In this document: positions 6,877-39,403 of the stretch, in pieces
Layout of the letters: the number at the start of each line of letters is the position of its first letter
Position numbering within the stretch: position 1 is the first letter of the stretch
NCBI GenBank assembly: GCA_964468755.1
Contig: CAYXWH010000001.1
Location: forward strand, 15,148-79,147
DNA from: an uncultured Dehalococcoidaceae bacterium
GTDB lineage: Bacteria; Chloroflexota; Dehalococcoidia; Dehalococcoidales; RBG-16-60-22
Length of the DNA stretch: 64,000 nt
Direction of reading: 5' to 3'
Program-made: the position numbers and the translations under genes
Notes under the pieces: model-generated
The model's input: only the letters and a program-made list of their open reading frames with translations
The model's database searches: none
Told to the model about the DNA's origin: nothing

Positions 6877-6890
6877 GCTTGCCTTCCCCT

Positions 6891-7850: not shown

Positions 7851-7915
7851 CGCTCATCTCCATCAATATATGGTTGGTGTTAAACGACCCGGCTAAACCA
7901 TTCTTTGACTGGTAC

Positions 7916-7952
7916 AGGTGTGTGACCGGTGTTTAGCCCCGGTCACACACCT
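7916..7952 (-). promoter_or_regulatory. intercistronic 14-bp perfect stem-loop between the SBP gene and the first permease gene
   Basis: AGGTGTGTGACCGG (7916-7929) pairs with CCGGTCACACACCT (7939-7952) around a 9-nt loop. No T-tract follows on the coding strand. Confidence 0.5.
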
Positions 7953-20218: not shown

Positions 20219-20407
20219 TTCCTTCCTCCTTGAACACATTAAGATTAGTATCCTGAACGGCTATACACCGGCAGCCGTTGTCTACCAATTTTCTTAAATG
20301 TTTAATATATTTATGTGGAGGATTGTCTCATTACTTTAGCTAGAAATGATTTCTGTACGGATTATCTATAATACCACCGGCGAATGTCAACAGTCCAGTA
20401 GTGAACA

Positions 20408-20445: not shown

Positions 20446-20877
20446 ATGACCGTTGATGAACTGGACAAAATATTAATAAAACTCCTCTCGGAAAACGCAA
20501 GACAGAGCAGCTATCAACTCGCCAAACAAGTGAACGTAAGCCCCAGCACTATAAGGAGAAGGATAAGGGAGCTTATTAAAAACGGCATCATCCGCACCAC
20601 CCTCACCATTGATTATGCGTCACTTGGTCTCCCCCTGGCAGCCCATATTGCATTGAATGTAAACCACGAGCAACTGGAGTCCGTCTGGGAAGCACTGCGG
20701 AAACTTCCCAATATAAAGCACGTTTCAATTACTGCCGGCAGATTTGATGTAATGGGAATGGTCCGGGTTTCATCCACGGAAGAGCTCTTAAAATTTGTCC
20801 AAAAGCAGATTACCCAGATACCCGGCGTGGAGAAGTGTGAAACGTTCATTTGCTTGCGTATGGAAAGGGCAACCTGA
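20446..20877 (+). CDS. Lrp/AsnC family transcriptional regulator
   Basis: 143 aa with an N-terminal HTH (LDKILIKLLSENARQSSYQLAKQVNVSPSTIRRRIRELI) and a C-terminal AsnC-type ligand domain. Confidence 0.85.
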   Translation: MTVDELDKILIKLLSENARQSSYQLAKQVNVSPSTIRRRIRELIKNGIIRTTLTIDYASLGLPLAAHIALNVNHEQLESVWEALRKLPNIKHVSITAGRFDVMGMVRVSSTEELLKFVQKQITQIPGVEKCETFICLRMERAT

Positions 20878-21174: not shown

Positions 21175-21939
21175 ATGGCTGATTTATTTGATTTGACAGG
21201 AAAGGTTGCTGTCGTCACCGGTGGTGCGGGTGGCATCGGGTATGCTATCACGCTCGGGCTTGCTGATGCCGGTGCCGATGTGGTTGTCGCCAGTCGTAAG
21301 CTGGAGCACCTGAAGCCAGTGACCGAGGAGATTCGCAAAAAGGGCAGAAAATCACTGGCAGTCAGTGTCGACGTCGTTGATGAGAAGTCGACAAGCGATA
21401 TGGTAAAGAAGGTGATTGACGAGTTCAAGCGCATTGACATTCTGGTAACAGCCCACGGCCTCGCCATCCGGAACCCGGCTGATACTTTCTCGGTTGAAGA
21501 CTGGCAAAAAGTAATGGATATCAATGCACGCGGTGTTTTCATGACCAACCAGGCAGTGGGCCGGGAGATGATCAAGCAGAAAAGCGGCAAGATTATCAAC
21601 CTGTCTTCGGTGAGGGGCAGATATGGGCTCCCCAATGGCTATGTGGCTTATTGCCCCAGCAAAGGTGCTGTCGATATGCTAACGAGAACGCTTGCGTGTG
21701 AGTGGGCCAAATATAATGTTCTGGTAAATGCAGTCGCTCCAACTTTTGTAGAAACCGAGCTTACCCGGACTGCTCTTGCTAATCCCGAGTTTGCCGCTCA
21801 GGTTAAGGCTCGTATTCCGCTGGGCCGCTGGGCGTTGCCTGAGGATATTGTTGGCCCCACCCTGTTTTTCGCCTCGCCAGCATCGGATTTTGTTACCGGG
21901 CAAGTTCTCTACATTGATGGTGGTGTGACCACCTGGTAG
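21175..21939 (+). CDS. SDR family oxidoreductase (candidate phloroglucinol-reductase-type enzyme)
   Basis: 254 aa with TGGAGGIG, catalytic S...YCPSK and an AGGAGG RBS. It is the first gene of a 4-gene string. Confidence 0.8.
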   Translation: MADLFDLTGKVAVVTGGAGGIGYAITLGLADAGADVVVASRKLEHLKPVTEEIRKKGRKSLAVSVDVVDEKSTSDMVKKVIDEFKRIDILVTAHGLAIRNPADTFSVEDWQKVMDINARGVFMTNQAVGREMIKQKSGKIINLSSVRGRYGLPNGYVAYCPSKGAVDMLTRTLACEWAKYNVLVNAVAPTFVETELTRTALANPEFAAQVKARIPLGRWALPEDIVGPTLFFASPASDFVTGQVLYIDGGVTTW

Positions 21940-22000
21940 TAGCATAGTTAAAAAAGCAATAATTTTGCGGAACCTTTTACCACAAAAGGAGTAAGCGCAT

Positions 22001-22339
22001 ATGAAAAAGATAGCACTGGACCAGGTTAAGCCCTACGAGGCACCCGGACACTTTAAAATGGTTGCGCTCAGGTTAGCCGGAAAGGATGAGACCGGTTCCG
22101 AGAAATTCTGGATGGGCATGTCTCATTTCCTCCCCGGAGGCGGTGCCGAATGGGCTTATGAGGACTCACCCGCGGAGAAAGTGTACTTCGTCATTGACGG
22201 TGAAATCACGGTCAAGACCAAAGAGCAGGAAGTTACCGTCGGTCCCATGGAAGGGGTTTTTCTTCCGCCCAATGAGGGAAGAGAAATTCTTAATAAGACC
22301 AACAAGACGGTCAGTATGCTGGTAATAGTTAATTATTAG
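22001..22339 (+). CDS. small cupin domain protein
   Basis: 112 aa with single beta-barrel signatures (GHFKMVALRL...HFLPGGGAEWAYEDSPAEKVYFVIDGEITV). Confidence 0.6.
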   Translation: MKKIALDQVKPYEAPGHFKMVALRLAGKDETGSEKFWMGMSHFLPGGGAEWAYEDSPAEKVYFVIDGEITVKTKEQEVTVGPMEGVFLPPNEGREILNKTNKTVSMLVIVNY

Positions 22340-22659
22340 GATACTATCTTCGGTAGTCTGAGTGATTCGTTTGCCCATGGCTATGGGTAAAATCACTCGG
22401 ACTGCCGTAGGTGGGTTACAGGATGGTTACCCGGTCTTGTATGAGGGGCGGAGGAGCTGTTGTTTGGAGCCAACGGGATAGTGGACACCAAAATAGGCAG
22501 GGTTAGCATAGTGGGGTACCTGTTTCACCGGGGATGGGCCCGGTGCTTGTCAGATGCCAAGTAATCTGCTACCAGTGGAGAGAAAGGCATACAGTTTCCT
22601 TACACCTCATTGACACAGTAACTACTGAGACCAAAAAGGTATGGAAAGAGGGAGATAAC

Positions 22660-23610
22660 ATGCAAGCAAAGGACGTTACCAATATCTCGTTAATTGGTGC
22701 GGGCATGATAGCGCCTGGCGTTGCTCAGATATTCGCCACCGGCAACTACAATGTATGTATCTATGCCCGAAGACAGGAAGCACTGCCCACCGCTCTTGAC
22801 CGTATCAGGTCAAATCTCTCGACCATGGCCAAAAGTGGACTAGTCTCAGAAAATGACATTGAGCCAACGGTGAGCCGGATAAAAACGACCACCAATCTGG
22901 CTGAAGCGGCGACTGATGCTCATCTGGTTATCGAATGTATTGCCGAAAATCTGGAGGTAAAGCAGAATATCTTCCAACAGCTGGACCAACTTAGCCCGGC
23001 AGACGCCATTCTGGCAACCAACACCTCGGTAATCAGCATAACCCAGATTGCCGCCACGTCTAAAAACAGGCAGAGAATCCTGGGGACCCATTTCTGGAAC
23101 CCGCCTTACATGATTCCCCTGGTAGAAGTCGTCAAGGGAGATGAAACCTCTGACGAAGCCATGGAGATAACCTATCAGGTTATGAAGGCAGCGGGTAAAC
23201 ACCCGGTGAAGTGCCTGAAGGATGTCCCCGGATTTATCGCCAACCGAATGCAGCATGCCCTGTGGCGGGAAGCAATTTCCATCGTGGAAAACGGTATTTG
23301 TGACGCCGCCACTGTCGATGAAGCCCTCAAGAATAGCTTTGCTATCCGTCTCCCGGTCCTGGGACCAATTGAGACCGCGGATATGGTGGGGCTTGACCTG
23401 ACCCTATCCATCCACGATTACATTTTCAAGCACCTTGAATCCTCACGTGAAGCGTCCCCCCTTATCAAAGAGAAGGTGAAGAAGGGAGACCTGGGGTTCA
23501 AAACGGGTCAGGGTCTTCAGAAGTGGTCGCCTGAGGAGGCTCAGCAGTCACGCGACAGATTGCTGGAATACCTTATCGAATGGAGCAAGAGGACACAGGG
23601 TAAAGCCTAG
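22660..23610 (+). CDS. 3-hydroxyacyl-CoA dehydrogenase family protein (L-carnitine-dehydrogenase-like NAD-dependent 3-hydroxy acid dehydrogenase)
   Basis: The start is moved to ATG 22660, which follows GGGAGA. It has a Rossmann motif ISLIGAGMIAPGVA, the core NTSVISITQ...HFWNPPYMIPLVEVV, and GFIANRMQ. Confidence 0.8.
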   Translation: MQAKDVTNISLIGAGMIAPGVAQIFATGNYNVCIYARRQEALPTALDRIRSNLSTMAKSGLVSENDIEPTVSRIKTTTNLAEAATDAHLVIECIAENLEVKQNIFQQLDQLSPADAILATNTSVISITQIAATSKNRQRILGTHFWNPPYMIPLVEVVKGDETSDEAMEITYQVMKAAGKHPVKCLKDVPGFIANRMQHALWREAISIVENGICDAATVDEALKNSFAIRLPVLGPIETADMVGLDLTLSIHDYIFKHLESSREASPLIKEKVKKGDLGFKTGQGLQKWSPEEAQQSRDRLLEYLIEWSKRTQGKA

Positions 23611-23683
23611 CGCAGCTCTGGACAGCAATCCGGGCAACTCTTCGTTTAATTTAATAAAATCTAGGGTACTGGAGGAATAAATA

Positions 23684-24619
23684 ATGGATAAACTTATCAT
23701 CACGGCGGCATTAACGGGTAACATCACACTCCCCACCCAGACGCCCTATCTACCGCTGACACCCCAGCAAATTGCCGAGGAGGCGAAAAGGGCGGCTGAT
23801 GCCGGGGCGGCTTCGATACATGTTCATGGCAGAGACCCCAATACCGGAAGGCCGACCACCGACCCCGAAGTATACCGGGAAATCGCCACTCTGATCAAAG
23901 AAAAAACGGACGCCATTGTCTGCATCACCACCGGCGGCACCATGTACATGACCGCCGAGGAACGGGTGCGCGTTGTCCCCGCCCTCAAACCGGAGCTAGC
24001 CACGTTCAACATGGGTTCTATCAACTTCTCCATCCACCCCATTGCGGAACGGTACAAGGACGAGGATTACGTTTATCCCTGGGAGAAAGAATTCGCGGAG
24101 AGCACCAAGGAATTTATCTTCCGCAACACCTTCGCTGATATTGAGCACTTCTGCAAGACAATGCAGGAAAATGACACCAAGCCGGAGCACGAGTGCTATG
24201 ATGTCGGCCACCTCTACAATATGTACTACTTTGTCCGCAAGGGCTTAATCAAACCGCCTCTGTGGATGCAGTTTGTCACCGGCATTCTGGGAGGAATCGG
24301 CTCTAACCCGGAAACTGTCATGTTCCTGAAACAAACGGCTGACCGTTTGTTCGGCGTCGGCACCTATAACTGGTCGGTCATCGGCGCTGGCTACCCGGCA
24401 GAATTTAATGCATGTGCCCTATCAACAATGATGGGAGGACACGCTCGCGTCGGTCTGGAGGATAACATCTTCATTGAGAAAGGCGTCCTCGCCAAGAGCA
24501 ATGGCGAACTGGTCGAGAAGGCGGTGAGAATTGCCAGAGAACTCGGCCGTGAGATTGCCTCCCCTGACGAAGCCAGGCAAATCCTTGGCTTAAAAGGCAG
24601 GGACAAGGTCGGCTACTAG
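23684..24619 (+). CDS. beta-keto acid cleavage enzyme (BKACE / 3-keto-5-aminohexanoate cleavage enzyme family, DUF849)
   Basis: 311 aa. MDKLIITAALTGNITLPTQTPYLPLTPQQIAEEAKRAADAGAASIHVHGRDP is the canonical BKACE N-terminus. Confidence 0.8.
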   Translation: MDKLIITAALTGNITLPTQTPYLPLTPQQIAEEAKRAADAGAASIHVHGRDPNTGRPTTDPEVYREIATLIKEKTDAIVCITTGGTMYMTAEERVRVVPALKPELATFNMGSINFSIHPIAERYKDEDYVYPWEKEFAESTKEFIFRNTFADIEHFCKTMQENDTKPEHECYDVGHLYNMYYFVRKGLIKPPLWMQFVTGILGGIGSNPETVMFLKQTADRLFGVGTYNWSVIGAGYPAEFNACALSTMMGGHARVGLEDNIFIEKGVLAKSNGELVEKAVRIARELGREIASPDEARQILGLKGRDKVGY

Positions 24620-24647: not shown

Positions 24648-25238
24648 TTATTCAGAATCCCGGCTTGGTGGGCTATCGTCCTTAGCAAATGACTTAAAAA
24701 AAGGCACTTCGCGGTATCTCCAATCCGCTGGCGGGGTTATCTGTGGCGGTGATTGCGTAAAATCAGCAATAACCTCAAAGTCATAAGCGGAGAAATATCG
24801 CAGAAGTGCCTTTTGTAATATACTTCTGACAATTATAAGTACGCTGGCCTCGGCTTCCAGAGCAAGTTTGACAGCCGGCATGAGCCCCCCGCCGGACAGT
24901 TCCACCGGACCAACTTCATCAATCACCACCAGATCACATTTATTGCCTGCCGCCTGCTCGATAGCCCGGCGGGCGAATTGAATTCCGTCGCGGCTAAAAG
25001 TATAGCGCCCGGCTATTTCCTCTTCACCGGATGGGCTGTCACCTGACTTCCGGGCAAAAGGCACCTCTTCGCCGGTTAACACATCAAGTACAGTATAGCC
25101 AGTCCGTACACCGTGCTCGCGTATCTCCGGAGAAATTACGCCGCCGACACTGAGCCCACAGCTCCGTAACCGGCTGATGTACTGCTGACACCAGGTGGTC
25201 TTGCCCGAACCCGGTTTACCGATAACAAGCATATTCAT
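24648..25238 (-). CDS. P-loop NTPase (THEP1/DUF2478-like)
   Basis: 196 aa with Walker A GKPGSGKTT and Walker B DLVVIDEVG. Confidence 0.6.
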   Translation of the reverse strand: MNMLVIGKPGSGKTTWCQQYISRLRSCGLSVGGVISPEIREHGVRTGYTVLDVLTGEEVPFARKSGDSPSGEEEIAGRYTFSRDGIQFARRAIEQAAGNKCDLVVIDEVGPVELSGGGLMPAVKLALEAEASVLIIVRSILQKALLRYFSAYDFEVIADFTQSPPQITPPADWRYREVPFFKSFAKDDSPPSRDSE

Positions 25239-25546: not shown

Positions 25547-27016
25547 TTGAAGCAAGTGAAAAGGTTAGTTATCATTCCGGTACTAATAATACTTGTCAGT
25601 GCCTCGCTCCTTATCAGTTGTGCTGAACCAGCTCCAGCTCCGGCACCAAGTCCAGCTCCAAGTCCAGCTCCAAGTCCAGCCCCAACCCCAGCACCAAGTC
25701 CAGCACCAAGTCCAGCACCAAGTCCAGCTCCAAGTCCAGCACCAAGCCCAGCACCAACACCGGCGCCAGCGGGACCAGAAGAGATTCTGATTGGTGCTGA
25801 CGCCTGCTTAACCGGCATGTATGCCGGTTTCGGTGAAGGTGCCGTATTTGGGATGGAAGCTGCTGTCGAGGATATTAACAAGCAAGGTGGCATATATATA
25901 GAAGAGTATGGCCGCAAAATCCCTGTCAAACTCGTAGTTGCCGACAATGAAAGCGATCTATCCAAGGCAGGGACTCTGGCTGAAGACCTGATACTCCGCG
26001 ACAAGGTAAAGTTCCTCATGACAACTGGAGCACTGGAGGTTAATTTCCCGATAGCGAGGGTAGCTGAGCGGTACAAAGTCCCATTTATGATCGGACCCGG
26101 TCCCTATGAATCCTGGCAAGCTATGCGTATGGAAGCCGATCCGCCCTGGAAATACACCTGGGGTGTCAGTTTTGCTATAGCCACTCCATCTCCAGAGGGA
26201 GATTTTCGCCATGATACACCGGGATATTCTATGTTTGATGCCTGGTTGGGTGCGCTTCAATTCTTCGGTGATGAGACCAATAAGAAGATAGCTCTCCTGG
26301 CCTCGGATGACCAGGACGGCAGAGGTTGGTATTTGGCGTTTGCACCAACGGCTGAATCAATAGGCATGGAGACTTATCATTCGGATGAACAATTTGGCCT
26401 GGTGCCTATGGATACCACGGACTTTAGCGCCCTGATAGGGAAATGGAAGGCCGACAATTGTGAGCTACTCTGGTCCAATTGTCCGGCGCCCTTTTTCGGG
26501 ACATTTTGGAGACAAGCTCGCACGCTGGGCTATCAACCCAAGCAGGTTTTTGCTACCAGGGCGGGGCTTTTCTACACCGATGTAACAGCGTGGGGAGGTG
26601 ACCTGCCACAGGGTATCTGCAATGAGATGTTCTGGAATCCGTCGATTGAGGGTACTCACGGTATTGGCGACACCACTGCCGTGAGCCTCCATGAAAGATG
26701 GTTTGAAGCGACAGGTCAACCAATGCACCAGATTATGGGCTGGATCTATGCTGATGCGCAAGTCCTGTTCGATGCTATTGAAAGAGCCGGCAGCCTTGAC
26801 GGAGAAAAAGTTAATGCAGCTCTGGCGCAAACCGATATGATGACAATTTATCATCGTGTCGTGTTTGACAAAGATCAGTATAGCCGGATTCCGGTTACTT
26901 TTGGCCAATGGCAGAAGACGGACAAGCCCTGGGTATGGGACAACCCGATAGTCTACTCGGATCATGATTTCATGCCGACCACGGCTGAGATGATATTCCC
27001 TATCCCCTATGACTAG
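25547..27016 (+). CDS. orphan LivK-type (PBP type 1) ABC substrate-binding lipoprotein
   Basis: It has a lipobox LLISC, a 50-residue PAPS linker, then [37 protein letters not shown], which is typical of Leu/Ile/Val-type binding proteins. A likelier start is GTG 25556, 9 nt after AAGGAAGGA. Confidence 0.8.
25628..25777 (+). repeat. 12-nt tandem repeat (CCAAGTCCAGC[T/A]C-type) encoding the (PSPA)n linker
   Basis: About 10 imperfect 12-nt units encode [50 protein letters not shown]. Confidence 0.8.
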
Positions 27017-27243: not shown

Positions 27244-29838
27244 ATGGCTTATTCCGCAAATGGTGAACAAGTTTTTACCAACTGCACCGTGGGCGGGCCC
27301 GTCAATGTCTACGTTAAAGACGGAAGAATAACCCGAATGGAACCTCTGCAACTTGATGAGGACGATGCCAAATCCTGGGTAATCGAAGCACGGGGTAAGA
27401 AGTTCTCCCCCCCCAGGAAAGCACTGCTTTCCCCGTATACGTTGACCGAGAGGGCAAAAATATACTCGGCAAACCGCCTTCTTTACCCGATGAAGCGGGT
27501 AGACTTCGACCCTAAAGGCAATCGAAATCCACAGAACAGAGGCAAATCAGGATACCAGCCAATCAGCTGGAAGGAAGCCCTGGATATCCTCTGTCCGGAA
27601 ATAGAGCGCATCCATGCTAAATACGGTCCGGGGGTTGTCGCCAGTACCGCATCTTCTCACCACAGCTGGGGCAATATCGGGTACCGGCACAGTACCTATT
27701 TCCGGTTCATGGGCATCCTCGGCTATACCTACTGCGACCATAACCCGGATAGCTGGGAAGGCTGGCACTGGGGGGCCATGCACACCTGGGGCTTTGCCTG
27801 GAGGCTGGGGGCTCCGGAACAATACGACCTTTTACAGGACGCCCTGAAGAACACTGAGATGATGATTTTCTGGTCGGCTGACCCTGAGTCCACCAGTGGA
27901 ATTTACGCCGGGCAGGAATCAACCCCGAGGCGCTTCTGGCTGAAAGACCTGGGGGTAAAGATGGTCTTTATTGACCCCTACTATAATTTCACGGCGCCCA
28001 ACTTCTGCGACAAATGGTTTGCGCCACGTCCAGGCACCGATACCGCCCTCGCTGCGGCTATCGCCTACGTCTGGATGACCGAAAACATATATGACAAAGA
28101 ATATGTTGCCAAGCGAACCTACGGCTTTGAAAAATGGCGTGACTACATACTCGGCGACGACGGCAGCTTCCCCAAGACACCGGAGTGGGCGGAGAAGGAG
28201 ACCGGAATACCCGCCCGGGAGATTAAAGCCCTCGCCCGGGAATGGTCGAAGAAGAAGACCATGCTGGCGGCTGGGGGTCTTGGCGGCTGGGGAGGAGCCT
28301 GCCGAAGCGCCTACGGGACCGAGTGGGCGCGGATGATGGTGCTCCTTCAGGCAATGCAGGGCCTGGGCAAACCCGGCATCAATATCTGGGCAACCACCGG
28401 CGGCGCCCCCTATAACTCCGATTTTGTCTTTCCCGGATACGCTGAAGGCGGAATATCCGGCGACCCGCTAAATTCCGCCGCGACCTATCAAATGGTAAGC
28501 CGTGGAAGCACCATGAGCCCGGTTAACTCGGCAATAAACAATCCCGGCGGACAGCACATACCGCGGATTCTGGTTCCGGAGTGTATCATGGACGCGCCCC
28601 AGGAATGGCGGGGCAAGGGATTTTGCGGTTCCTCCACCGAATTCCAGTTCAAGAAGTACAAGTACCCCGAAGACGGATTTTCCCGGGTGAAAATGTTTTG
28701 GCGGTATGGCGGTGCCTATATCGGCACCATGAACAATACCAACCGCTGGGTCAAGATGTACCAGAGCCCGAACCTGGAAATGGTGGTCAACCAGTCCATC
28801 TGGCTGGAAGGCGAAGCCCAGTTTGCTGACCTGATACTCCCTGCCTGCACCAACTTCGAAAGGTGGGACATCGGTGAGTGGTCCCATTGCTCGGGTTACA
28901 TACCCCATAACTCCTACCAGACCAACCACCGCATAATCGTCTTTGAAAAGAAATGCATTGAACCACTCGGAGAATCGAAGTCAGACTACGATATATTTGC
29001 CATGATTGCCGACCGGCTCGGCTTCCACGACAAGTTCACCGAGGGAGGCATGACTGACTTAGACCGGGTCAAGAGGATGTATGAGGTAACCGACCTGTCG
29101 AAGTACATTTCCTGGGAGGATTTCGAGAAGAAAGGCTACTTCGTGGTTCCCATGCCTGACGATTATAAACCAACACCAGCGCTGAGGTGGTTTGCCGAGA
29201 ACCGGCACCGGGATACACCCGATTGGGGTCCTGTTGGCGCCGCTGTGGAAGGCCTGCCCGACCGTGAAGGAAACCTGAGCACCCAGACCGGTAAAATTGA
29301 ATTTGAGTCGCAGAGCCTCAAGCGCTTCGACCCTGATGACCCGGAGCGGCCGCTGGTCCCCAAGTACATACCATCGTGGGAGGGCCACCATACCACGGAG
29401 CTTCTTGAAAATTATCCGCTGCAGCTTATTTCACCGCATCCCAGGTTCAGCTTCCATACCCAGTACGATGGCAAAGAAAGCTGGATGAACGAGATACCGG
29501 AGCACCGTGTCAAGGCAAAAGACGGTCACTACTACTGGGTAATCAGGCTAAACAAAGTGGATGCTGACAAGAGAGGTATCAAGAGCAATGACATCGTCAG
29601 GGTCTTTAACGACCGGGGCGTTGTTTTATGTGCCGCCCAGGTTACCGGGCGCGTCCCGACCGGTGTGGTCCATTCTTATGAGTCCAGTGCTGAATACCAG
29701 CCCATCGGCGAGCCCGGTGAATCACCGGACAAAGGCGGCAGCATTAACCTGCTGACCAATCACCGCTTCATGTCAAAGAATGCCTGCGGCATGGCACCTA
29801 ATTCATGCCTCGTGGAAATAGCCAAGGAAGGAGCTTAA
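27244..29838 (+). CDS. athL: pyrogallol hydroxytransferase (transhydroxylase) large-subunit-like molybdopterin enzyme (DMSO reductase family)
   Basis: 864 aa. Recalled from memory, it is full-length colinear with Pelobacter acidigallici AthL (GGPVNVYVKDGRITRMEP, SSHHSWGNIGYRHSTYFRFMGILGYTYCDHNPDSWEGWHWGAMHTWGF, LPACTNFERWDI, GMAPNSCLVEI). Like AthL it has no Tat signal and no N-terminal Cys cluster. Confidence 0.8.
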   Translation: MAYSANGEQVFTNCTVGGPVNVYVKDGRITRMEPLQLDEDDAKSWVIEARGKKFSPPRKALLSPYTLTERAKIYSANRLLYPMKRVDFDPKGNRNPQNRGKSGYQPISWKEALDILCPEIERIHAKYGPGVVASTASSHHSWGNIGYRHSTYFRFMGILGYTYCDHNPDSWEGWHWGAMHTWGFAWRLGAPEQYDLLQDALKNTEMMIFWSADPESTSGIYAGQESTPRRFWLKDLGVKMVFIDPYYNFTAPNFCDKWFAPRPGTDTALAAAIAYVWMTENIYDKEYVAKRTYGFEKWRDYILGDDGSFPKTPEWAEKETGIPAREIKALAREWSKKKTMLAAGGLGGWGGACRSAYGTEWARMMVLLQAMQGLGKPGINIWATTGGAPYNSDFVFPGYAEGGISGDPLNSAATYQMVSRGSTMSPVNSAINNPGGQHIPRILVPECIMDAPQEWRGKGFCGSSTEFQFKKYKYPEDGFSRVKMFWRYGGAYIGTMNNTNRWVKMYQSPNLEMVVNQSIWLEGEAQFADLILPACTNFERWDIGEWSHCSGYIPHNSYQTNHRIIVFEKKCIEPLGESKSDYDIFAMIADRLGFHDKFTEGGMTDLDRVKRMYEVTDLSKYISWEDFEKKGYFVVPMPDDYKPTPALRWFAENRHRDTPDWGPVGAAVEGLPDREGNLSTQTGKIEFESQSLKRFDPDDPERPLVPKYIPSWEGHHTTELLENYPLQLISPHPRFSFHTQYDGKESWMNEIPEHRVKAKDGHYYWVIRLNKVDADKRGIKSNDIVRVFNDRGVVLCAAQVTGRVPTGVVHSYESSAEYQPIGEPGESPDKGGSINLLTNHRFMSKNACGMAPNSCLVEIAKEGA

Positions 29839-29841
29839 ACG

Positions 29842-30672
29842 ATGACTAACTGGGGTATGATAATCGATGTATCAAAGTGCACCGGCTGCTACAACTGTTT
29901 CACCGCTTGTAAAGACGAATACTGGGATAATGATTATCCCCCCTATTCCTCAGGTCAGCCAAAGCACGGGCAATTCTGGATGAATATCGATACCAGAGAA
30001 CGTGGCGCCCACCCCTTCGTAAAAGTCGCTCACATACCTCTGCCCTGCATGCACTGTGACGACGCCCCCTGCATTAAGGCAGCCAAGGATGGTGCCGTCT
30101 ACAAGAGACCTGACGGCGTAGTTATCATAGACCCGAAGAAGGCGGTGGGACAAAAGCAAATAGTTGATGCCTGTCCCTATAATGTAATTTACTGGAATGA
30201 GGAAAAACAGCTTCCCCAGAAGTGTACCTTCTGTGTCCACCGGCTTGAAGCCGGAGAGGTTCCGCGCTGTGTACAGGCATGTCCCAGCGGGGCCCTGATA
30301 TTCGGTGACATGGATGACCCTAAAAGTGAGATTTCCCAGGTTATGGCCTCCGGGAAGACCGAAGTCCTCAATCCGGAACTAAAGACCAAGCCAAGGGTAT
30401 ACTACATCGGGATACCCAGAATGTTTATCGCGGGCAGTGCCGTATTTGAAGACACAGACGAATGTGCCGAGGGAGTGACGGTCACCCTGACCGAACAGTC
30501 TTCCGGCAAATCAATGAAGACCGCTACCAACAACTATGGAGAATTTGAATTTGACGGTCTTGTGTCCGGAAAGTACGTGGTGCAACTGGGATACAACGGT
30601 TATGCGGGAAAGAAGATTGATATAGAACTGAAAACAGACAACTACCTGGGAGCAATTTCCCTGTCTCGATAA
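29842..30672 (+). CDS. bthL: pyrogallol hydroxytransferase small-subunit-like 4Fe-4S protein with C-terminal Ig-like domain
   Basis: 276 aa with CTGCYNCFTAC, CMHCDDAPC and CTFCVHRLEAGEVPRCVQACP. The C-terminal NNYGEFEFDGLVSGKYVV beta-sandwich matches that of BthL. Confidence 0.8.
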   Translation: MTNWGMIIDVSKCTGCYNCFTACKDEYWDNDYPPYSSGQPKHGQFWMNIDTRERGAHPFVKVAHIPLPCMHCDDAPCIKAAKDGAVYKRPDGVVIIDPKKAVGQKQIVDACPYNVIYWNEEKQLPQKCTFCVHRLEAGEVPRCVQACPSGALIFGDMDDPKSEISQVMASGKTEVLNPELKTKPRVYYIGIPRMFIAGSAVFEDTDECAEGVTVTLTEQSSGKSMKTATNNYGEFEFDGLVSGKYVVQLGYNGYAGKKIDIELKTDNYLGAISLSR

Positions 30673-30733
30673 CCATTACGACAGTTCTTGATACGCTATA
30701 AACATGATCTAAGCACAAAAGGAGGTATAAGAA

Positions 30734-31438
30734 GTGCAACGTCTCAGCAATATTAAGAGTCCCATGACGTCAGAGAGTTTGGTAGGTGCTCTGATTGCGG
30801 TGGTGGTCTTCGGTTCTATCTGGGGGCTGGTAGAAGCCACGCTGGGTGGCTTCCTGCACCTCATCCACGTACCCCCATTGTATAAAGGAGCTATTACCGG
30901 TGGCATCGGTATGGCACTCATGGCAATCTTTGTCACCACCTACAAACGGCCCACCCTTGTCTTCGCGATAGGAGTGATTGCCGCACTTTTCAAGCCATTG
31001 AGCGCTATTATATATGCCCAGCCGGTTTTCGCTCCGTTTGTGGTCAACCCGGCCACGGCAATCGTTCTCGAGGCGCTGGGGTTCTGCCTGGTAGCCAGCC
31101 TGCTGCACAAAGGCTTCGAAAGCAGCGTTAAATCACGCGTAGCCATTGGCGTCTCCGCCGGTTACCTGGGCTTTATTCTATTCGCCATTGTCGCCTCGGC
31201 ACTGGGCTTTGGCAAATGGCCCATGATGGGGATTACTGATAAATTAGTTACCACACTGTCCAATGGCACAGCCCTGGCTATTGTCGGTACGTTGCTGCTG
31301 CTGCCGGGGCATCTCGCTGGCAGGCAACTGAGACCCATACTCAGTGCCATGAAACCCAGGACATTCTATGCCGGCGCTGCGGTCAGTATCGTGTTTTGCT
31401 GGGCTATCGCGTCACTTGCCTTTGCCGTCGGTTTGTAG
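30734..31438 (+). CDS. integral membrane protein of unknown family (about 6 TM), co-transcribed with the athL/bthL-like genes
   Basis: 234 aa with a GTG start 7 nt after AAGGAGG. It is hydrophobic throughout. I recognise no motif. Confidence 0.55.
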   Translation: MQRLSNIKSPMTSESLVGALIAVVVFGSIWGLVEATLGGFLHLIHVPPLYKGAITGGIGMALMAIFVTTYKRPTLVFAIGVIAALFKPLSAIIYAQPVFAPFVVNPATAIVLEALGFCLVASLLHKGFESSVKSRVAIGVSAGYLGFILFAIVASALGFGKWPMMGITDKLVTTLSNGTALAIVGTLLLLPGHLAGRQLRPILSAMKPRTFYAGAAVSIVFCWAIASLAFAVGL

Positions 31439-31475
31439 TGAACCTGCTGGCATAAATTAAATTAACCATTGTCAG

Positions 31476-31510
31476 AACCAGCCAGTGCTGTCAATACACT
31501 GGCTGGTTTT
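31476..31510 (+). terminator. rho-independent terminator after the membrane-protein gene
   Basis: The 12-bp stem AACCAGCCAGTG / CACTGGCTGGTT has a 9-nt loop and runs into TTTT. Confidence 0.6.
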
Positions 31511-31603: not shown

Positions 31604-32326
31604 ATGGTAAACACCACCACAAAGGGACATGACGAAGTAGCCGAGGCACGCAGCCAGATATACAACCTCTTTGGTGCTCTTTATCTTGAACTGCCCGGTT
31701 TACCGCTGCTGGAAAGCGTATTTGGCGATGAGTTTGAGCGCCAGCTCTCCATGGCTGCCACCAAACTCGATTTGACCAAGATGAAGCGGGGGTTAAAGCT
31801 GGTTACCCGGTTTGTTAACGACTTTAAAGACCAGCCCAGGGATGAAGTCCTCACCCTCGTTTCCGTTGACCGGACACGGCTCCTGCGGGGAGTCAACGCA
31901 CAACTCAGCCCATTACCACCCTACGAGTCAGTTTACCGGGAAGGTCGCCTCTGGGGAGAATCCACTGTAGACGTCGCTCATACTTTTCCCAAACTGGGAG
32001 CCAAACTTCCCGAGCAATGGACTGAGCCACCGGACTACATTGGTATTGAGTTTGACCTCATGCGCCTCATCTGCCAGAGCGAACATGACGCGTGGCATTC
32101 CGGCGATGCCGCCAAAGCTCTGGAATATCTGGAAGCAGGACGAGACTTCTTGAAGAAACATATCCTGCTGTGGGTCCCCGGTTTCTGCGATCAAATGTAC
32201 CGGAGGGCGGAGATCACCTTTTACCAGGGAATCGCCCGGATGACCGATGGCTTCGTAAAGTATGACGGTCATCTCGTGGATTATCAGATTAACGTGGTTA
32301 GAAAGAATCTCGCCGAGCAAGCTTAG
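31604..32326 (+). CDS. TorD/DmsD/NarJ-family molybdoenzyme maturation chaperone
   Basis: 240 aa, all-helical. The conserved PPDYIGIEFDLMRLI block matches the (E/P)PxDHIxxELxFM motif of the TorD family. Confidence 0.7.
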   Translation: MVNTTTKGHDEVAEARSQIYNLFGALYLELPGLPLLESVFGDEFERQLSMAATKLDLTKMKRGLKLVTRFVNDFKDQPRDEVLTLVSVDRTRLLRGVNAQLSPLPPYESVYREGRLWGESTVDVAHTFPKLGAKLPEQWTEPPDYIGIEFDLMRLICQSEHDAWHSGDAAKALEYLEAGRDFLKKHILLWVPGFCDQMYRRAEITFYQGIARMTDGFVKYDGHLVDYQINVVRKNLAEQA

Positions 32327-33279
32327 TAGGTGATATAGGTATCCGATACCGGAAGTAGTACCCCGTCAATATTAAGCGTGGTTCTTGTTCCCCCGGCGAC
32401 AATGATGTGTCTCAACATGAGCCCGCCAAAGAGCCCTATCACACTCACAATTGCAGTGGGAATCAGCATTGTTACCGTTGCCGCCGACGATAGGTAGCCA
32501 ACGTACAGCTCAAATACAAAAGGCACCAGCAGGCCGGAGACCACTACCCCACCCCAGAAACGCGCCGACAGGTTGCCAGTGACCACCATGTTCGCCGAAA
32601 GCCGGGCTTCAGCAAGCTGATACATCCGGTACAGATAGACAACAAGTATAATTGCCTCTACTATTACTATGAAGACATCATACCGGGCGAGGCGAACCAA
32701 CGCAGGTTCGACAGCGGTTCCCGCCGATAAGCCAAATATGGTGAGTATGAACGCTGTCCCCATGATACCGGTGGATATCCCCGACACCAGAAAGAGTACC
32801 GGAAGTACCGTCTGGCTCCAGAATGGAATGGGCTTGGCGGCTCCCAGGAGCAGACCGGTATAAATCATGGTGAGCACGGCAAATATGGAGCCGATAATTC
32901 CAAGAGCGAGAAACGCACCCGCATTATCAGCCAGAATGTTAAACGGCCATATCCACAATCCGATATGTATTATGTCAAGTATTAAAAATATGGTTATGAT
33001 GATACTCCCCCGCGCCATCCATGATGACAGAGGCCGTAAAAACACCATAGCGAATATTTGCTTCTGACCGAGGTCCAGTACCAGCAAAAAGAGCCCGATA
33101 ACCATCAGGGGCGCCGCCAGAATGATGGCTATTTTCGAGAAAAGTGCGAATTCAGAATTGACCAGTCCGAGGATAAAACCCATCAGGTATGCCCCGGCAC
33201 CCATACCCGCCAGGAAAAGATAGGTAGCTACACTCCAGCCCCACACTTTCTGCTTGCGTAGAGTATCAGTCATCTCCAT
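32323..33279 (-). CDS. NrfD/PsrC/DmsC-type polytopic membrane (quinone-interacting) subunit
   Basis: 318 aa with 8 TM. The WGWSVATYLFLAGMGAGAY motif is typical of the NrfD family. Confidence 0.8.
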   Translation of the reverse strand: MEMTDTLRKQKVWGWSVATYLFLAGMGAGAYLMGFILGLVNSEFALFSKIAIILAAPLMVIGLFLLVLDLGQKQIFAMVFLRPLSSWMARGSIIITIFLILDIIHIGLWIWPFNILADNAGAFLALGIIGSIFAVLTMIYTGLLLGAAKPIPFWSQTVLPVLFLVSGISTGIMGTAFILTIFGLSAGTAVEPALVRLARYDVFIVIVEAIILVVYLYRMYQLAEARLSANMVVTGNLSARFWGGVVVSGLLVPFVFELYVGYLSSAATVTMLIPTAIVSVIGLFGGLMLRHIIVAGGTRTTLNIDGVLLPVSDTYITY

Positions 33280-33280
33280 G

Positions 33281-33910
33281 TCACTTCTTTACCTCATCCT
33301 TCGGTAAGTAATACACTGATGGTTTGGTGCCAAATTCCGGGTTAAGCACAAAGCCTTCCCTTTCCCGGATAAGCCTGGATACCTCGCTATCCGGGTCATC
33401 CAGGTCGCCGAAGAAACGGGCCTCGGCCGGGCAGACCTCCACACATGCCGGCTGTAGACCCCGCTCAACTCGTGATTGGCACATATCGCATTTCTGCACC
33501 GTACCCAGTTTATGCTTCTGGTAACCTTCTTTCTCATATGGGGTCATGTGTTCCGGGTAGTAGCTACGCAGCTCATCAAAGAAGTACCGGGTGGCGTAAG
33601 GGCAAGCTATCATGCAGTACCGGCAGCCCACGCACTTATCACTATCAATAACCACAATGCCGTCCTCTCGCTTGGTGCTCGCGCCGGTAGGACACACCTT
33701 CACACATTCCGGGTCCTCACAATGCATGCAGGTTATCGGCAAAAAGTTCAGCCGGCTATCCGGATATTTCCCCGTCTCGTACTTGAGGACTCGGTTCCAC
33801 ATTATTCCCCGTGAGGTGGCATTTTCCGCCTTACATGCAATGGAGCAAGCATCACAGCCTATGCACCGCTTGAGGTCGATTACCAATCCGTACCTGGGCA
33901 TTTGGTTCAA
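33281..33910 (-). CDS. 4x[4Fe-4S] electron-transfer subunit (DmsB/PsrB-type)
   Basis: 209 aa with CIGCDACSIAC, CMHCEDPECVKVCP, CVGCRYCMIACP and CDMC...CVEVCP. Confidence 0.85.
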   Translation of the reverse strand: MNQMPRYGLVIDLKRCIGCDACSIACKAENATSRGIMWNRVLKYETGKYPDSRLNFLPITCMHCEDPECVKVCPTGASTKREDGIVVIDSDKCVGCRYCMIACPYATRYFFDELRSYYPEHMTPYEKEGYQKHKLGTVQKCDMCQSRVERGLQPACVEVCPAEARFFGDLDDPDSEVSRLIREREGFVLNPEFGTKPSVYYLPKDEVKK

Positions 33911-33916
33911 TGCTCC

Positions 33917-37795: not shown

Positions 37796-39403
37796 CTACT
37801 CTCCGGGAAGCCGCCAGGGATACCTCTGTTCATAGGGCTGGGACAGGTCAGGCCGCCATTCCTGGGGTACCGGCTGCTTAAATACCTTCATCTCACTGTT
37901 TTCCTCCTGCAGCAGTACCCATGCCAGCCAGTTCGCGTCATCCCGGCGGGGATAGTCTTCACGGTAATGGCAGCCACGGCTTTCTGTCCGGAATAGCGAA
38001 GCCCTCAGCCTCATCTCGGCATTCAGAATCATGTTCTTCGTTTCAAGTGCCAAACGCAACTCGTGCGGGTCCCGGGCAAATATTTTTGGAGCCATGTGGT
38101 CTCTCAGGAACTCGGTTATGGTCAATGCCGCTCTCATGCGGTCTTCTTTCTTGATATACAAAATGAAATACGGCATCATGGTGTTCTGTAATACCTGGGT
38201 CACCCACCTCGGACTGAAGCCACCTTTACGCTCCGCCGGCGCCTGGACTATCTTCTTTATCCGGGACACCTCCTGGTCGTCGATTTCCGGCTTCTCTGCC
38301 TGTTTGGCATACCCGGCAGCCGCCACACCGGCAATAGTCCCGGTAACCGAGGAACCGCCGAGCGCACAACCAATGGCACCGTACACAGCACCCATCTGCA
38401 TGGTGCCCAGAGCATCGCCAGCGGCGTAAAGCCCGGAGAGACTGGTGGCACAGCTGGTATCAACCGGCCAGATACCTTCGGCTTTATGGACCGACATGCC
38501 AGAGGAAGCTCCGCCTATCCGTACCGACTTCTCGCCATCAGGCATTTGCGAATATACTGGTGCCCGTCCCGCATGGGCTTCAAACTCCATATCCAGAAAC
38601 AAGGTACCGCGACCGGTTATCTCATTACCCTCGGCATTTAACTGCTTGCCCCGGCGGGGTCCGCCACTCATCCTCTTGGCGAAGCCGAGATATGCCGGGT
38701 GCTCGGCACCGGTGGGGTGCGTATCGGCAAATTCCTTGCCGGTTATCTCAGCACCGGCCCGGTACGCCATGGCATCACCATCCGCCGTCAACGCCGAAAT
38801 GGGCCAGCCCCAGGGCTTGAAACCCCCGGCTCCCGAGCACAGCACCGTCGCCTTTACCCGGAAAACATAAATATCATAACTCTCCATGGGAATGCCGATG
38901 ACACCCACAATCCGGCCGTCCTGCTTCAAAAGGTCGGTGACCATGATTCTGTCCATGAGCTTGACGCCCCGCTTCACCGCCTGCTTCCTCATAAGCTCGG
39001 CAAATACCTTGGCCCCCATATGGGCTGCCCGGCAGGGTCCCAGCATCGATTCGGACCGGAATAGCGTCCCATCTTCATTCTTGCGGAACTCCACTCCCCA
39101 GGAAACGAGGTCCTGGTACCGGGCGTAGGACTCCTTAAAGGCGATTTCCGTCCATTCCCGGTTATTGACATACTGACCCACCCGGCTGACCTGTTCCACC
39201 CAGGCAGCTAAATCATCACCCCACTCCGGGTTAAAGACCGAGTAACTGCCGGCAAACGGGGTTTGCCCTGATTTACCAGCATACCCCTTGTCCACCAGGG
39301 TCACCACTACCCCCTGCTCCTTTGCCTTTATCGCCGCAAAGAGACCGGCTATGCCTCCACCGACTATCAGTACATCCGTCTCTACCACCTTTGCCGCTGG
39401 CAT
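37796..39403 (-). CDS. FAD-dependent oxidoreductase, fumarate reductase/succinate dehydrogenase/L-aspartate oxidase flavoprotein family
   Basis: 535 aa with DVLIVGGGIAGLFAA and the canonical C-terminal RTESRGCHYREDYP motif. Confidence 0.8.
   Translation of the reverse strand: MPAAKVVETDVLIVGGGIAGLFAAIKAKEQGVVVTLVDKGYAGKSGQTPFAGSYSVFNPEWGDDLAAWVEQVSRVGQYVNNREWTEIAFKESYARYQDLVSWGVEFRKNEDGTLFRSESMLGPCRAAHMGAKVFAELMRKQAVKRGVKLMDRIMVTDLLKQDGRIVGVIGIPMESYDIYVFRVKATVLCSGAGGFKPWGWPISALTADGDAMAYRAGAEITGKEFADTHPTGAEHPAYLGFAKRMSGGPRRGKQLNAEGNEITGRGTLFLDMEFEAHAGRAPVYSQMPDGEKSVRIGGASSGMSVHKAEGIWPVDTSCATSLSGLYAAGDALGTMQMGAVYGAIGCALGGSSVTGTIAGVAAAGYAKQAEKPEIDDQEVSRIKKIVQAPAERKGGFSPRWVTQVLQNTMMPYFILYIKKEDRMRAALTITEFLRDHMAPKIFARDPHELRLALETKNMILNAEMRLRASLFRTESRGCHYREDYPRRDDANWLAWVLLQEENSEMKVFKQPVPQEWRPDLSQPYEQRYPWRLPGE

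Follow-up and report, generated by a model that had tools for sequence, protein, structure and literature searches.

A membrane protein with a predicted S-component-like fold and its THEP1-type NTPase partner near transhydroxylase genes: a possible Mo/W-cofactor supply module

Within a 64,000-nucleotide stretch of DNA (the window), the gene that follows an athL/bthL-like transhydroxylase pair encodes a 234-aa, seven-helix membrane protein that belongs to an uncharacterised family and has a predicted ECF S-component-like fold (30734..31438, + strand, GTG start). Its tightest and constant partner across related loci is a THEP1/NTPase_1-type P-loop NTPase and not the BthL-like subunit, and the membrane gene–NTPase pair has a recurrent Mo/W-enzyme neighbourhood. 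We tentatively propose, as a reading to which we give somewhat less than an even chance, that the pair is an uncharacterised uptake or delivery module for the Mo/W-pterin cofactor pathway, and not an electron-transfer subunit.

The AthL-like large (Mo-bisPGD) subunit of pyrogallol-phloroglucinol transhydroxylase type (27244..29838, + strand, 864 aa) has no signal peptide, its N-terminus (MAYSANGEQVF) carrying neither a Tat nor a Sec signal, and matches Pfam PF21423 (AhtL-like_1st), Molybdopterin and Molydop_binding. The BthL-like small Fe-S subunit (29842..30672, + strand, 276 aa) matches Fer4_11 and CarboxypepD_reg and has a C-terminal beta-sandwich domain. Residues 11-861 of the AthL-like protein were aligned to residues 7-866 of the 875-aa PDB 4v4c_A at 1140 bits, with active-site H144, R153, D174, S175, W176, W354 and Y404 (Pelobacter numbering) kept, and residues 3-255 of the BthL-like protein to residues 3-255 of the 274-aa PDB 4v4c_B at 225 bits. 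Colinearity with the Pelobacter acidigallici enzyme, as claimed in the original prediction, was thus confirmed over full-length homologues, and 27244-30672 encodes a genuine cytoplasmic AthL/BthL-type pyrogallol-phloroglucinol transhydroxylase of a Dehalococcoidia-like bacterium. Pelobacter AthL/BthL is described as a soluble heterodimer with no third subunit; the pair in the window resembles it as colinear, full-length homologues with a conserved active site and no signal peptide, and adjoins phloroglucinol-pathway genes, but here the pair is clustered with a membrane protein, an NTPase, FmdE-type proteins and a TorD-like chaperone.

The transhydroxylase feeds the adjoining phloroglucinol pathway. 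Pfam matches on the + strand identify a phloroglucinol-reductase-like SDR (21175-21939), a Cupin_2 protein (22001-22339), a 3HCDH-type dehydrogenase (22534-23610) and a BKACE-type lyase (23684-24619), which are enzyme families of the characterised phloroglucinol pathway, and family-to-enzyme assignments for 21175..24619 follow the same source (PMC10470551). Orthologous loci hold the same set plus a cyclase-family gene. An AsnC/Lrp-type regulator (20446..20877, + strand; Pfam AsnC_trans_reg, HTH_24) heads the cluster, and a Peripla_BP_6 solute-binding lipoprotein (25547..27016, + strand; 130 bits) with a lipobox-like LLISC, followed by a long linker of ~50 aa in Pro/Ala/Ser repeats, is encoded upstream of athL; its orthologue adjoins bthL in several loci.

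All three ORFs were found on the + strand at the coordinates and lengths of the original prediction (864, 276 and 234 aa), with the expected 61-nt gap between bthL and the third gene. The initiation signal was as described except for its spacer, the Shine-Dalgarno AAGGAGG (30719..30725, + strand, read from the sequence) standing 8 nt, and not 7 nt, 5' of the GTG, and the start at 30734 is supported because >100 orthologues of ~235 aa align from residue 1 of the membrane protein. At 31476..31510 (+ strand) the sequence folds into a strong hairpin (~14-bp stem, −27.8 kcal/mol, z = −4.8 vs shuffles) with UUUUAG after it; it is probably an intrinsic terminator or attenuator, and was absent from a simple terminator scan because its T-run has only 4 T. 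The hairpin is real, but the claim that the unit clearly ends there needs amending: a gene for a TorD/NarJ-family molybdoenzyme maturation chaperone (31604..32326, + strand, 240 aa; Pfam Nitrate_red_del, 88 bits; NCBIfam DMSO_red_II_cha and TorD matches under cut-offs) begins 165 nt past the third gene, beyond the hairpin, so the functional cluster is not obviously ended by it. The chaperone gene is kept at the same position in two related loci (L006, L007).

Judged from its homologues (>500 sequences, 276 cluster representatives at 50% identity), the third gene is real and widely conserved. Its product has no Pfam, NCBIfam or PDB sequence match, in keeping with its earlier description as uncharacterised, and no sequence-level membership in any S-component family was found. 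Two independent AlphaFold models, for the window protein (pLDDT 93.2) and for a homologue of 30% identity encoded in an fwd operon (pLDDT 93.7), both gave the S-component YkoE (5edl) as the first Foldseek match with probability 1.0 (TM 0.55/0.64 and 0.52/0.56, respectively), and the homologue model also matched CbiM, PanT, ThiT and RibU, so that the fold class is modelled as ECF-transporter S-component-like. Seven hydrophobic helices were counted by AlphaFold DSSP and hydropathy, which corrects the six transmembrane segments of the original prediction, and the topology is probably N-in, C-out. Only G27, W30, G31, E34, A83 and K87 are invariant or nearly so across the family, and P106 and E113 are conserved beside W30, E34 and K87; the conserved polar cluster (W30, E34, K87, N105/P106, E113) sits in the outer membrane half. 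Neither a family-wide His pair nor His/Cys ligands were found among the homologues. The protein thus shares with ECF S-components (YkoE, ThiT, RibU, PanT, CbiM) a small all-helical architecture of ~200-235 aa, its best structural match (TM about 0.5-0.64), conserved polar residues buried in the outer membrane half, and a small stand-alone gene beside pathway genes that would use the ligand. It differs from them in matching none of the S-component Pfam families by sequence, in an additional seventh, C-terminal helix, and in a conserved partner that is a THEP1-type NTPase and not an ABC ATPase; no EcfT, EcfA or ABC ATPase genes were found near the membrane-protein gene.

In the window this usual coupled partner is displaced, a 196-aa THEP1/NTPase_1 (DUF2478) P-loop NTPase being encoded on the − strand at 24648..25238 (Pfam NTPase_1 98.6 bits, above cut-off; DUF2478 41 bits; PDB matches NTPCR 2i3b and THEP1 1ye8). 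For synteny, 80 related metagenome loci were sampled, of which 76 were evaluable for the NTPase and 55 for the athL/bthL flank; the close loci form one clade and are not independent observations. The NTPase_1 gene lies directly 3' of the membrane gene on the same strand in 61/76 loci, in 36/60 extracted pairs its stop codon shares 1 nt with the NTPase start codon, and the Walker A and B motifs, kept in the window protein, are invariant in the partner NTPases. Among distant homologues (24-43% identity) with enough downstream sequence the pairing was kept in 9/9 (L087, L088, L091 with a partial ORF, L093, L095, L097, L098, L100 and L101), including loci from a Ca. Altiarchaeota archaeon and a Ca. 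Aerophobetes bacterium. We know of no demonstration that a THEP1-type NTPase powers transport. Characterised THEP1/NTPCR members are described as soluble NTPases, orphans whose physiological role is not known (PMC1079890), and neither a conserved coupled membrane partner of a THEP1-type NTPase nor a link to Mo/W enzymes was found in the searchable literature.

Linkage to athL/bthL elsewhere was borne out in position though not in orientation: the membrane gene directly flanks the pair in 40/55 loci of the Dehalococcoidia clade (41/55 with one locus in which only an FmdE gene intervenes), but is divergent from athL in 34/55 and lies 3' of bthL on the same strand, as in the window, in only 6/55. 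The same-strand athL-bthL-membrane gene order is thus a minority arrangement of the family. Relatives at 30-43% identity, with their NTPase, stand beside fwd and FdhD, FmdE and FdhD, TtrA-like and xanthine-dehydrogenase-type enzymes. The order is FmdE-TM-NTPase-FdhD in L088 and FwdA/C/B/D (formylmethanofuran dehydrogenase)-TM-NTPase-FdhD in L095, where FwdB and FdhD score above NCBIfam cut-offs. In L097 a TtrA-like Tat enzyme, an Fe-S protein, a NarJ-like chaperone and TatA precede TM-NTPase and a MobA-like gene; in L100 the pair adjoins a MobA-like gene; and in L101 an XdhA/4-HBCR-like Mo subunit is followed by TM-NTPase, DUF364 ('heavy-metal chelation'), a MocA-like gene and XdhC, the MobA/MocA-like matches scoring below curated cut-offs. 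In L001 TM-NTPase comes after a TrmO_N/FmdE fusion, and a second membrane-protein paralogue is present. Mo/W-cofactor genes occur within three genes of the pair in 5/7 distant contexts with enough flanking sequence, the flanks of L093 and L098 holding no Mo/W genes, and a search of the window and of 15 loci for Moco riboswitches gave none.

The original prediction had suggested that the third protein may be a membrane anchor or quinone-coupling subunit. Such a subunit would hold BthL at the membrane and deliver electrons to quinone, giving a hydroxylase or dehydrogenase like resorcinol hydroxylase. The apparent co-transcription in the window (short gap, strong Shine-Dalgarno, 3' hairpin), an internal promoter scan without a match, and the BthL C-terminal beta-sandwich domain, whose role is unassigned, would suit such a subunit. 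The NrfD/PsrC, DmsC and NarI anchors of Mo-bisPGD enzymes are likewise membrane proteins with genes next to those for a Mo subunit and a four-cluster Fe-S subunit. The window has a genuine anchor of this type at 32323-33279 (− strand), but the protein at 30734-31438 has no sequence or fold similarity to these anchors and differs from them in helix number, in synteny logic and in the lack of conserved haem or quinone-site residues family-wide. Its fold matches S-components, a soluble P-loop NTPase is the partner with which it is translationally coupled, its gene is mostly divergent from athL, and its distant homologues adjoin, with the NTPase, soluble, non-respiratory Mo/W enzymes of other families. 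The adjoining phloroglucinol pathway is complete and needs no external acceptor, and its genes are consistent with a redox-neutral isomerisation of pyrogallol to phloroglucinol of the kind seen in Pelobacter. Fold, absent ligand residues, NTPase pairing and synteny speak against an electron-transfer identity, and we consider the anchor reading very improbable. The other earlier suggestion, a dedicated substrate channel, survives only in that the protein is transporter-like. Import of pyrogallol or gallate, or handling of the tetrahydroxybenzene cosubstrate, would accord with the tight linkage to athL/bthL and polyphenol-degradation genes in Dehalococcoidia, but the same invariant pocket residues and NTPase partner are also seen where polyphenol genes are missing, in loci of the fwd, ttr-like and xdh-like kinds, which argues against pyrogallol as ligand, and the cluster already encodes a binding protein, of Peripla_BP_6 or DctP type, to serve substrate uptake. 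The Peripla_BP_6 lipoprotein is the likelier aromatic-substrate uptake component, and we rate a dedicated polyphenol transporter as improbable.

Two further explanations retain the NTPase. NadR phosphorylates the cargo of PnuC inside the cell, and by analogy the pair could be a general salvage transporter for a Mo-unrelated metabolite (vitamin, nucleoside-like) with a trapping kinase-like NTPase, the Mo neighbourhoods being incidental or clade effects. This would agree with an S-component-like fold, typical of vitamin uptake, with the resemblance of THEP1 relatives to nucleotide kinases in sequence, and with the housekeeping or unrelated genes around the pair in L093 and L098. We nevertheless think it unlikely, since Mo/W enzymes of three families accompany the pair in five of the seven informative distant contexts, in unrelated lineages, together with maturation factors specific to them (FdhD twice, FmdE, MobA/MocA-like three times, XdhC, NarJ) for which chance is hard to credit. 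Less likely still is a Moco-insertion scaffold, in which the NTPase would be a MobB-like adaptor in final cofactor maturation or insertion and the membrane protein a mere tether: Pfam gives one partner NTPase a faint match to MobB (E = 1e-3) and the pair adjoins MobA/MocA-like, FdhD, XdhC and NarJ/TorD-like genes, but AthL/BthL, Fwd and XDH-type enzymes are soluble proteins of the cytoplasm, leaving a membrane tether without obvious purpose, and the conserved charges E34, K87 and E113 in the outer bilayer half, with the S-component-like fold, point to ligand binding and not to anchoring.

In the cofactor-supply reading, for which the TorD/NarJ-type chaperone 3' of the membrane gene was also counted, the membrane protein would bind a ligand outside, and the NTPase, presumably in physical contact with it, would drive, gate or trap the ligand inside. 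Gene neighbourhood suggests molybdate, tungstate or a cofactor precursor as the most likely cargo, and import as the probable direction. ModABC, TupABC and WtpABC, often encoded beside Mo/W enzymes and cofactor genes, serve the function proposed here, but they are ABC importers with a periplasmic binding protein, permease and ABC ATPase, none of which the module resembles in sequence or architecture. The membrane protein belongs to an undescribed family whose constant partner is the THEP1-type NTPase, and the module may have been recruited to the transhydroxylase cluster in the Dehalococcoidia clade.

The 234-aa membrane protein behind the athL-bthL genes (hereafter the TM protein, 30734-31438, + strand) is the last of three open reading frames, of 864, 276 and 234 aa, on the + strand at 27244-31438. 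The first (athL-like, 27244-29838) was aligned to the large subunit of the Pelobacter acidigallici transhydroxylase (PDB 4v4c, chain A, 875 aa) at 1140 bits, with residues 11-861 placed onto 7-866, and matched the Pfam AhtL-like first domain (PF21423) at 85 bits (cut-off 27), in keeping with an AthL-type large subunit of ~870 aa within the DMSO-reductase family. In the HMMER alignment, His144, Arg153, Asp174, Ser175, Trp176, Trp354 and Tyr404 (Pelobacter numbering), reportedly the Mo ligand and substrate-binding residues (Messerschmidt et al. 2004), are all identical. Coordination of Mo by Ser is described in PMC10100899. The N-terminus, MAYSANGEQVF, carries no Tat or Sec signal when read by eye, the 4v4c_A alignment begins at residue 11, and the large subunit is predicted to be cytoplasmic, as membership of AthL/BthL requires. 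The second (bthL-like, 29842-30672) aligned to 4v4c chain B (274 aa) at 225 bits over 3-255, and contains Pfam Fer4_11 and CarboxypepD_reg (a carboxypeptidase-regulatory-like beta domain), giving the ferredoxin-type Fe-S domains and C-terminal beta-barrel domain of an AthL/BthL small subunit. The colinearity with Pelobacter AthL/BthL proposed for these two reading frames was thus borne out by the chain A and B alignments. AthL/BthL proteins were already noted in Dehalococcoidia-related Chloroflexi in 2013 and 2016 (PMC3971608, PMC4959651), and the transhydroxylase part of the finding is known biology.

Between the AsnC-type regulator gene (20446-20877) upstream and the transhydroxylase genes lie genes for an SDR (21175-21939), a cupin (22001-22339), a 3-hydroxyacyl-CoA-dehydrogenase-type protein (3HCDH, 22534-23610), a BKACE-type protein (23684-24619), a THEP1/NTPase_1-DUF2478 P-loop NTPase (24648-25238, minus strand), and a Peripla_BP_6 lipoprotein (25547-27016). 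In the anaerobic phloroglucinol pathway, PGR, DPGC, TfD and TAL belong to the SDR, 'cyclase', 3HCDH-like and BKACE families (PMC10470551). Since the gene families of the window match this pathway, the cluster can be read as a route from pyrogallol through phloroglucinol to acetoacetate/acetyl units, apparently redox-neutral and of the Pelobacter type, and the adjoining SDR, 3HCDH and BKACE genes support the predicted conversion of pyrogallol to phloroglucinol with 1,2,3,5-tetrahydroxybenzene as cosubstrate. By tblastn, no copy of the 'cyclase'-family gene (candidate dihydrophloroglucinol cyclohydrolase) was found in the 64-kb window; in most orthologous loci it is located between the cupin and SDR genes, which here are separated only by 21939-22001. 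A second SDR gene, at ~16935-17705 (-), encodes a protein 60% identical to the first. The Peripla_BP_6 gene has a putative TTG start codon at 25547, and its product has a lipobox-like LLISC, then a Pro/Ala/Ser repeat of ~50 residues (PAPSPAPS...), and then the binding domain (25547-25800, +); the repeat resembles an extended linker that would hold the protein at the surface of a monoderm cell.

Flavoproteins of the fumarate-reductase/succinate-dehydrogenase type (FAD_binding_2 and Succ_DH_flav_C) are encoded on both sides of the cluster, at 18245-20239 (-) and 37796-39403 (-), and a similar gene is convergent on the TM gene in L004 (8802-10427, -), one of the loci on other contigs, numbered L001 to L101, that carry orthologues or distant homologues of the TM gene. 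A convergent, Psr/Phs-like Mo-bisPGD cluster of three genes (32323-36664, -) comprises an NrfD-type anchor (32323-33279, -; NrfD match 106 bits), a four-cluster Fe-S protein (33281-33910, -), and a catalytic subunit of 915 aa with an Fe4S4 domain (33917-36664, -). A gene for a TorD/NarJ-type molybdoenzyme chaperone (31604-32326), located 3' of the TM gene and on its strand, separates these three genes from those of the transhydroxylase, and its product could serve either enzyme; a role as Tat-proofreading factor for the Psr-like enzyme is doubtful, because no twin-arginine motif was found in the first 60 residues of that enzyme's catalytic subunit.

The TM gene begins 61 nt after the bthL stop codon. 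The proposed AAGGAGG is present before its GTG start, with a spacer of 8 nt instead of 7, and the start itself is supported by more than 100 orthologues of ~235 aa that align from residue 1. A strong hairpin follows the gene (31476-31510; -27.8 kcal/mol, z = -4.8, then UUUUAG), as had been predicted; in place of the six transmembrane helices claimed, seven hydrophobic helices were found in the AlphaFold model and by hydropathy. No Pfam or NCBIfam match was obtained in a scan of the single protein, and none to plasmids by tblastn. A family profile built from 48 diverse homologues gave no match to PDB sequences, and a second profile search, of a set of 5.8 billion proteins, returned the same close clade with no annotated relatives; among weak Pfam matches (E <= 1) of the 48 homologues, the 25 families displayed, with one member each, include no S-component family. 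The family is nonetheless real though it has no Pfam entry, with more than 500 matches in a set clustered at 90% and 276 representatives at 50% clustering, and its named members come almost exclusively from Dehalococcoidia/Chloroflexota MAGs. Conserved family-wide are G27, W30, G31, E34, A83 and K87, joined by P106, I110 and E113 in an alignment of 15 TM/NTPase pairs; the family has no invariant His or Cys, H42 being frequent but a single residue.

The AlphaFold model of the TM protein (pLDDT 93.2, pTM 0.89) consists of seven long helices, and its search against the PDB using Foldseek gave a single meaningful match, the ECF S-component YkoE (5edl; probability 1.0, TM 0.55/0.64, E = 5.6e-3). 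As a robustness check, a second model was made for P0157, a homologue with 30% identity that is encoded in an fwd operon (pLDDT 93.7), for which YkoE was again the top match, along with CbiM (5x3x_M), PanT (4rfs_S), ThiT (3rlb_B) and RibU (5kc0). Two independent models thus give an S-component fold, at weak Foldseek E-values and TM-scores of ~0.5-0.64, and on these models the proteins form an undescribed, S-component-like family. Hydropathy and the positive-inside rule suggest an N-in, C-out topology, in which helices 1, 3 and 4 would carry the conserved polar residues in their outer halves; W30, E34, K87, N105/P106 and E113 in these positions are the only indication of a putative extracytoplasmic ligand site.

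For comparison of gene order, metagenomes were scanned with an alignment of the closer homologues, giving 80 loci with orthologues 56-100% identical, onto which the window proteins were mapped by tblastn; a scan of genome contigs with the single TM protein as query gave one locus, L006. The close loci are all from one clade and are not independent. In 61 of 76 evaluable loci, the gene immediately downstream of the TM gene, in the same orientation, is an NTPase_1 gene, and the stop and start codons of the two overlap by one base in 36 of the 60 extracted pairs. The upstream neighbour is a divergent athL in 34 of 55 loci, a same-strand bthL (the window type) in only 6, an FmdE fusion in 1, and another gene in 14. 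From the downstream and upstream counts, the constant partner is the NTPase and not BthL. In the dominant layout, bthL(-) athL(-) are followed by TM(+) NTPase(+), and then BKACE(-) 3HCDH(-) cupin(-) cyclase(-) SDR(-); the TM gene would thus usually lie outside the athL-bthL transcript, yet in the clade it stays beside athL/bthL nearly always. The order athL-bthL-TM on one strand, on which the original prediction was based, is real in the window and is a minority form across loci, and from the arrangement the TM gene appears to have moved behind bthL while the NTPase gene remained beside BKACE. The window NTPase matches NTPase_1 at 98.6 bits (cut-off 23.9) and DUF2478 at 41 bits (cut-off 22.3), and the paired alignment shows no variation in Walker A (G-x4-GKT) or Walker B (DE). 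One metagenome contig (L007) has 99-100% protein identity to the window from the NTPase through the Psr-like Mo subunit.

The close loci vary in their surroundings. A second athL/bthL pair, 36-58% identical to that of the window, is present in L001, L010, L035, L037, L052, L053, L067, L071 and L085, and a third in L035 as well, with additional pairs often back-to-back with the first; multiple divergent pairs per locus suggest a family of hydroxyl-transfer enzymes with differing substrates. In L024 (2770-8390; also L029, L057 and L059), four genes separate the TM gene from a 57%-identical athL paralogue, encoding a DctP-type binding protein, an Amidohydro_2 protein (possibly an aromatic-acid decarboxylase), a 7-bladed lactonase-type propeller, and a 384-aa protein without Pfam match, and such loci may represent a different polyphenol entry route. 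In L001, a 246-aa protein without Pfam match (6282-7022, +) is a paralogue of the TM protein (34% identity) and is followed by a TrmO_N/FmdE fusion (7080-7949, +), and then by the TM orthologue and NTPase, so that two TM copies flank an FmdE-type gene; in L004 and L017, an FmdE gene lies between two athL/bthL pairs.

Among distant homologues (24-43% identity; informative contexts, n = 7), the NTPase gene is kept in every one with enough downstream sequence. On a short contig (L087), the TM gene is followed by the NTPase gene only, and in L091 a partial downstream ORF matches the NTPase. The gene order is FmdE-TM-NTPase-FdhD in L088 and FwdA/C/B/D-TM-NTPase-FdhD in L095, where FwdB and FdhD exceed NCBIfam cut-offs. 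In L097, the pair follows genes for a TtrA-like Tat enzyme, an Fe-S protein, a NarJ-like protein, a second Fe-S protein, cytochrome c and TatA, and precedes a MobA-like/NUDIX gene; in L100 (Ca. Altiarchaeota), a MobA-like gene is convergent on it. In L101 (Ca. Aerophobetes), genes for an XdhA/4-HBCR-like Mo subunit and an M20 peptidase precede the pair, and DUF4213/DUF364, the FAD and 2Fe-2S subunits, MocA-like and XdhC genes follow. MobA- and MocA-like matches fall below curated cut-offs. The DUF4213/DUF364 gene ('putative heavy-metal chelation'; 8163-8921, +) lies directly after the NTPase gene in this xanthine-dehydrogenase-type operon. Judged by gene content, the common denominator of these contexts is three Mo/W enzyme families with their own maturation factors, and not polyphenol genes. 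An Rfam scan of the window and 15 loci revealed only tRNAs, with no Moco or other riboswitch.

The TM protein had been proposed as a membrane anchor or quinone-coupling subunit. Anchors of Mo-bisPGD enzymes are co-transcribed with catalytic and Fe-S subunits, whereas the TM gene shows no such conserved co-transcription; the protein has no homology to NrfD, DmsC or Nitrate_red_gam (compared for the NrfD/PsrC, DmsC and NarI anchors), and the family lacks conserved haem-ligand or quinone-site residues. The fold, the mostly divergent orientation, the soluble NTPase partner, and the soluble, non-respiratory enzymes encoded nearby also contradict this role, which we regard as scarcely credible; a haem/quinone anchor was rejected, and a true NrfD is present in the window at 32323-33279. 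The alternative proposal of a dedicated substrate channel agrees with the transporter-like nature of the protein, and accords poorly with contexts that lack polyphenol genes and with clusters that already contain dedicated binding proteins, making a polyphenol transporter very unlikely. ECF S-components share the small helical-bundle membrane fold, although the TM family has no sequence membership in any described S-component family. S-components work with an EcfT scaffold and EcfA/A' ABC ATPases; in group I the genes for these lie close by, and in group II they are shared and distant. No CbiQ/EcfT gene was found in the annotated flanks of TM genes, the part of each genome in view, and ABC_tran genes occur there in L101 only, within an ABC transporter of the BPD_transp_2 type whose genes precede that of the Mo subunit.

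The explanation that we tentatively favour, with slightly less than even confidence, is that the TM protein and NTPase form a module that takes up or delivers material for the Mo/W-pterin cofactor pathway. The S-component-like protein would bind molybdate/tungstate or a cofactor precursor outside, the THEP1-type NTPase, presumably in physical contact with it, would drive, gate or trap the ligand inside, and the module would have been recruited to the transhydroxylase cluster in a Dehalococcoidia clade. A salvage transporter unrelated to Mo, with the NTPase as trapping kinase, would suit L093 and L098, where the pair is present with no Mo/W genes in view, and sits less well with the Mo/W neighbourhoods elsewhere; we consider it unlikely. 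A membrane-tethered, MobB-like insertion scaffold would be in keeping with the neighbouring maturation factors, and is set against the transporter-like fold; it appears distinctly unlikely. Extending the uptake module further, the pair might constitute an unrecognised class of energy-coupled importer, in which a non-ABC P-loop NTPase drives ECF-like membrane hardware. Such an importer would serve Mo/W enzymes in Dehalococcoidia, Aerophobetes, Altiarchaeota and others with molybdate/tungstate or with a pterin-cofactor precursor obtained by salvage, and would provide the first physiological role for the orphan THEP1/NTPCR family; this is a possibility that we hold as doubtful.

The novelty is the accessory pair, a Pfam-less membrane protein family coupled to a THEP1-type NTPase, of which no description was found in the searchable literature, which omits most subscription journals. 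To our knowledge, the THEP1-type NTPase has had no biological role assigned since its structure was solved, and in bacteria as well as archaea the pair adjoins three Mo/W enzyme classes together with the factors for their maturation. The result corrects a tempting misreading, that of a membrane-coupled, respiratory transhydroxylase in these organisms. If the pair takes up Mo/W or a precursor, it would bring the known kinds of system for acquiring Mo/W to four, would account for the provisioning of abundant molybdoenzymes in streamlined anaerobes of the subsurface, and would improve the annotation of polyphenol-degrading Dehalococcoidia in sediments.
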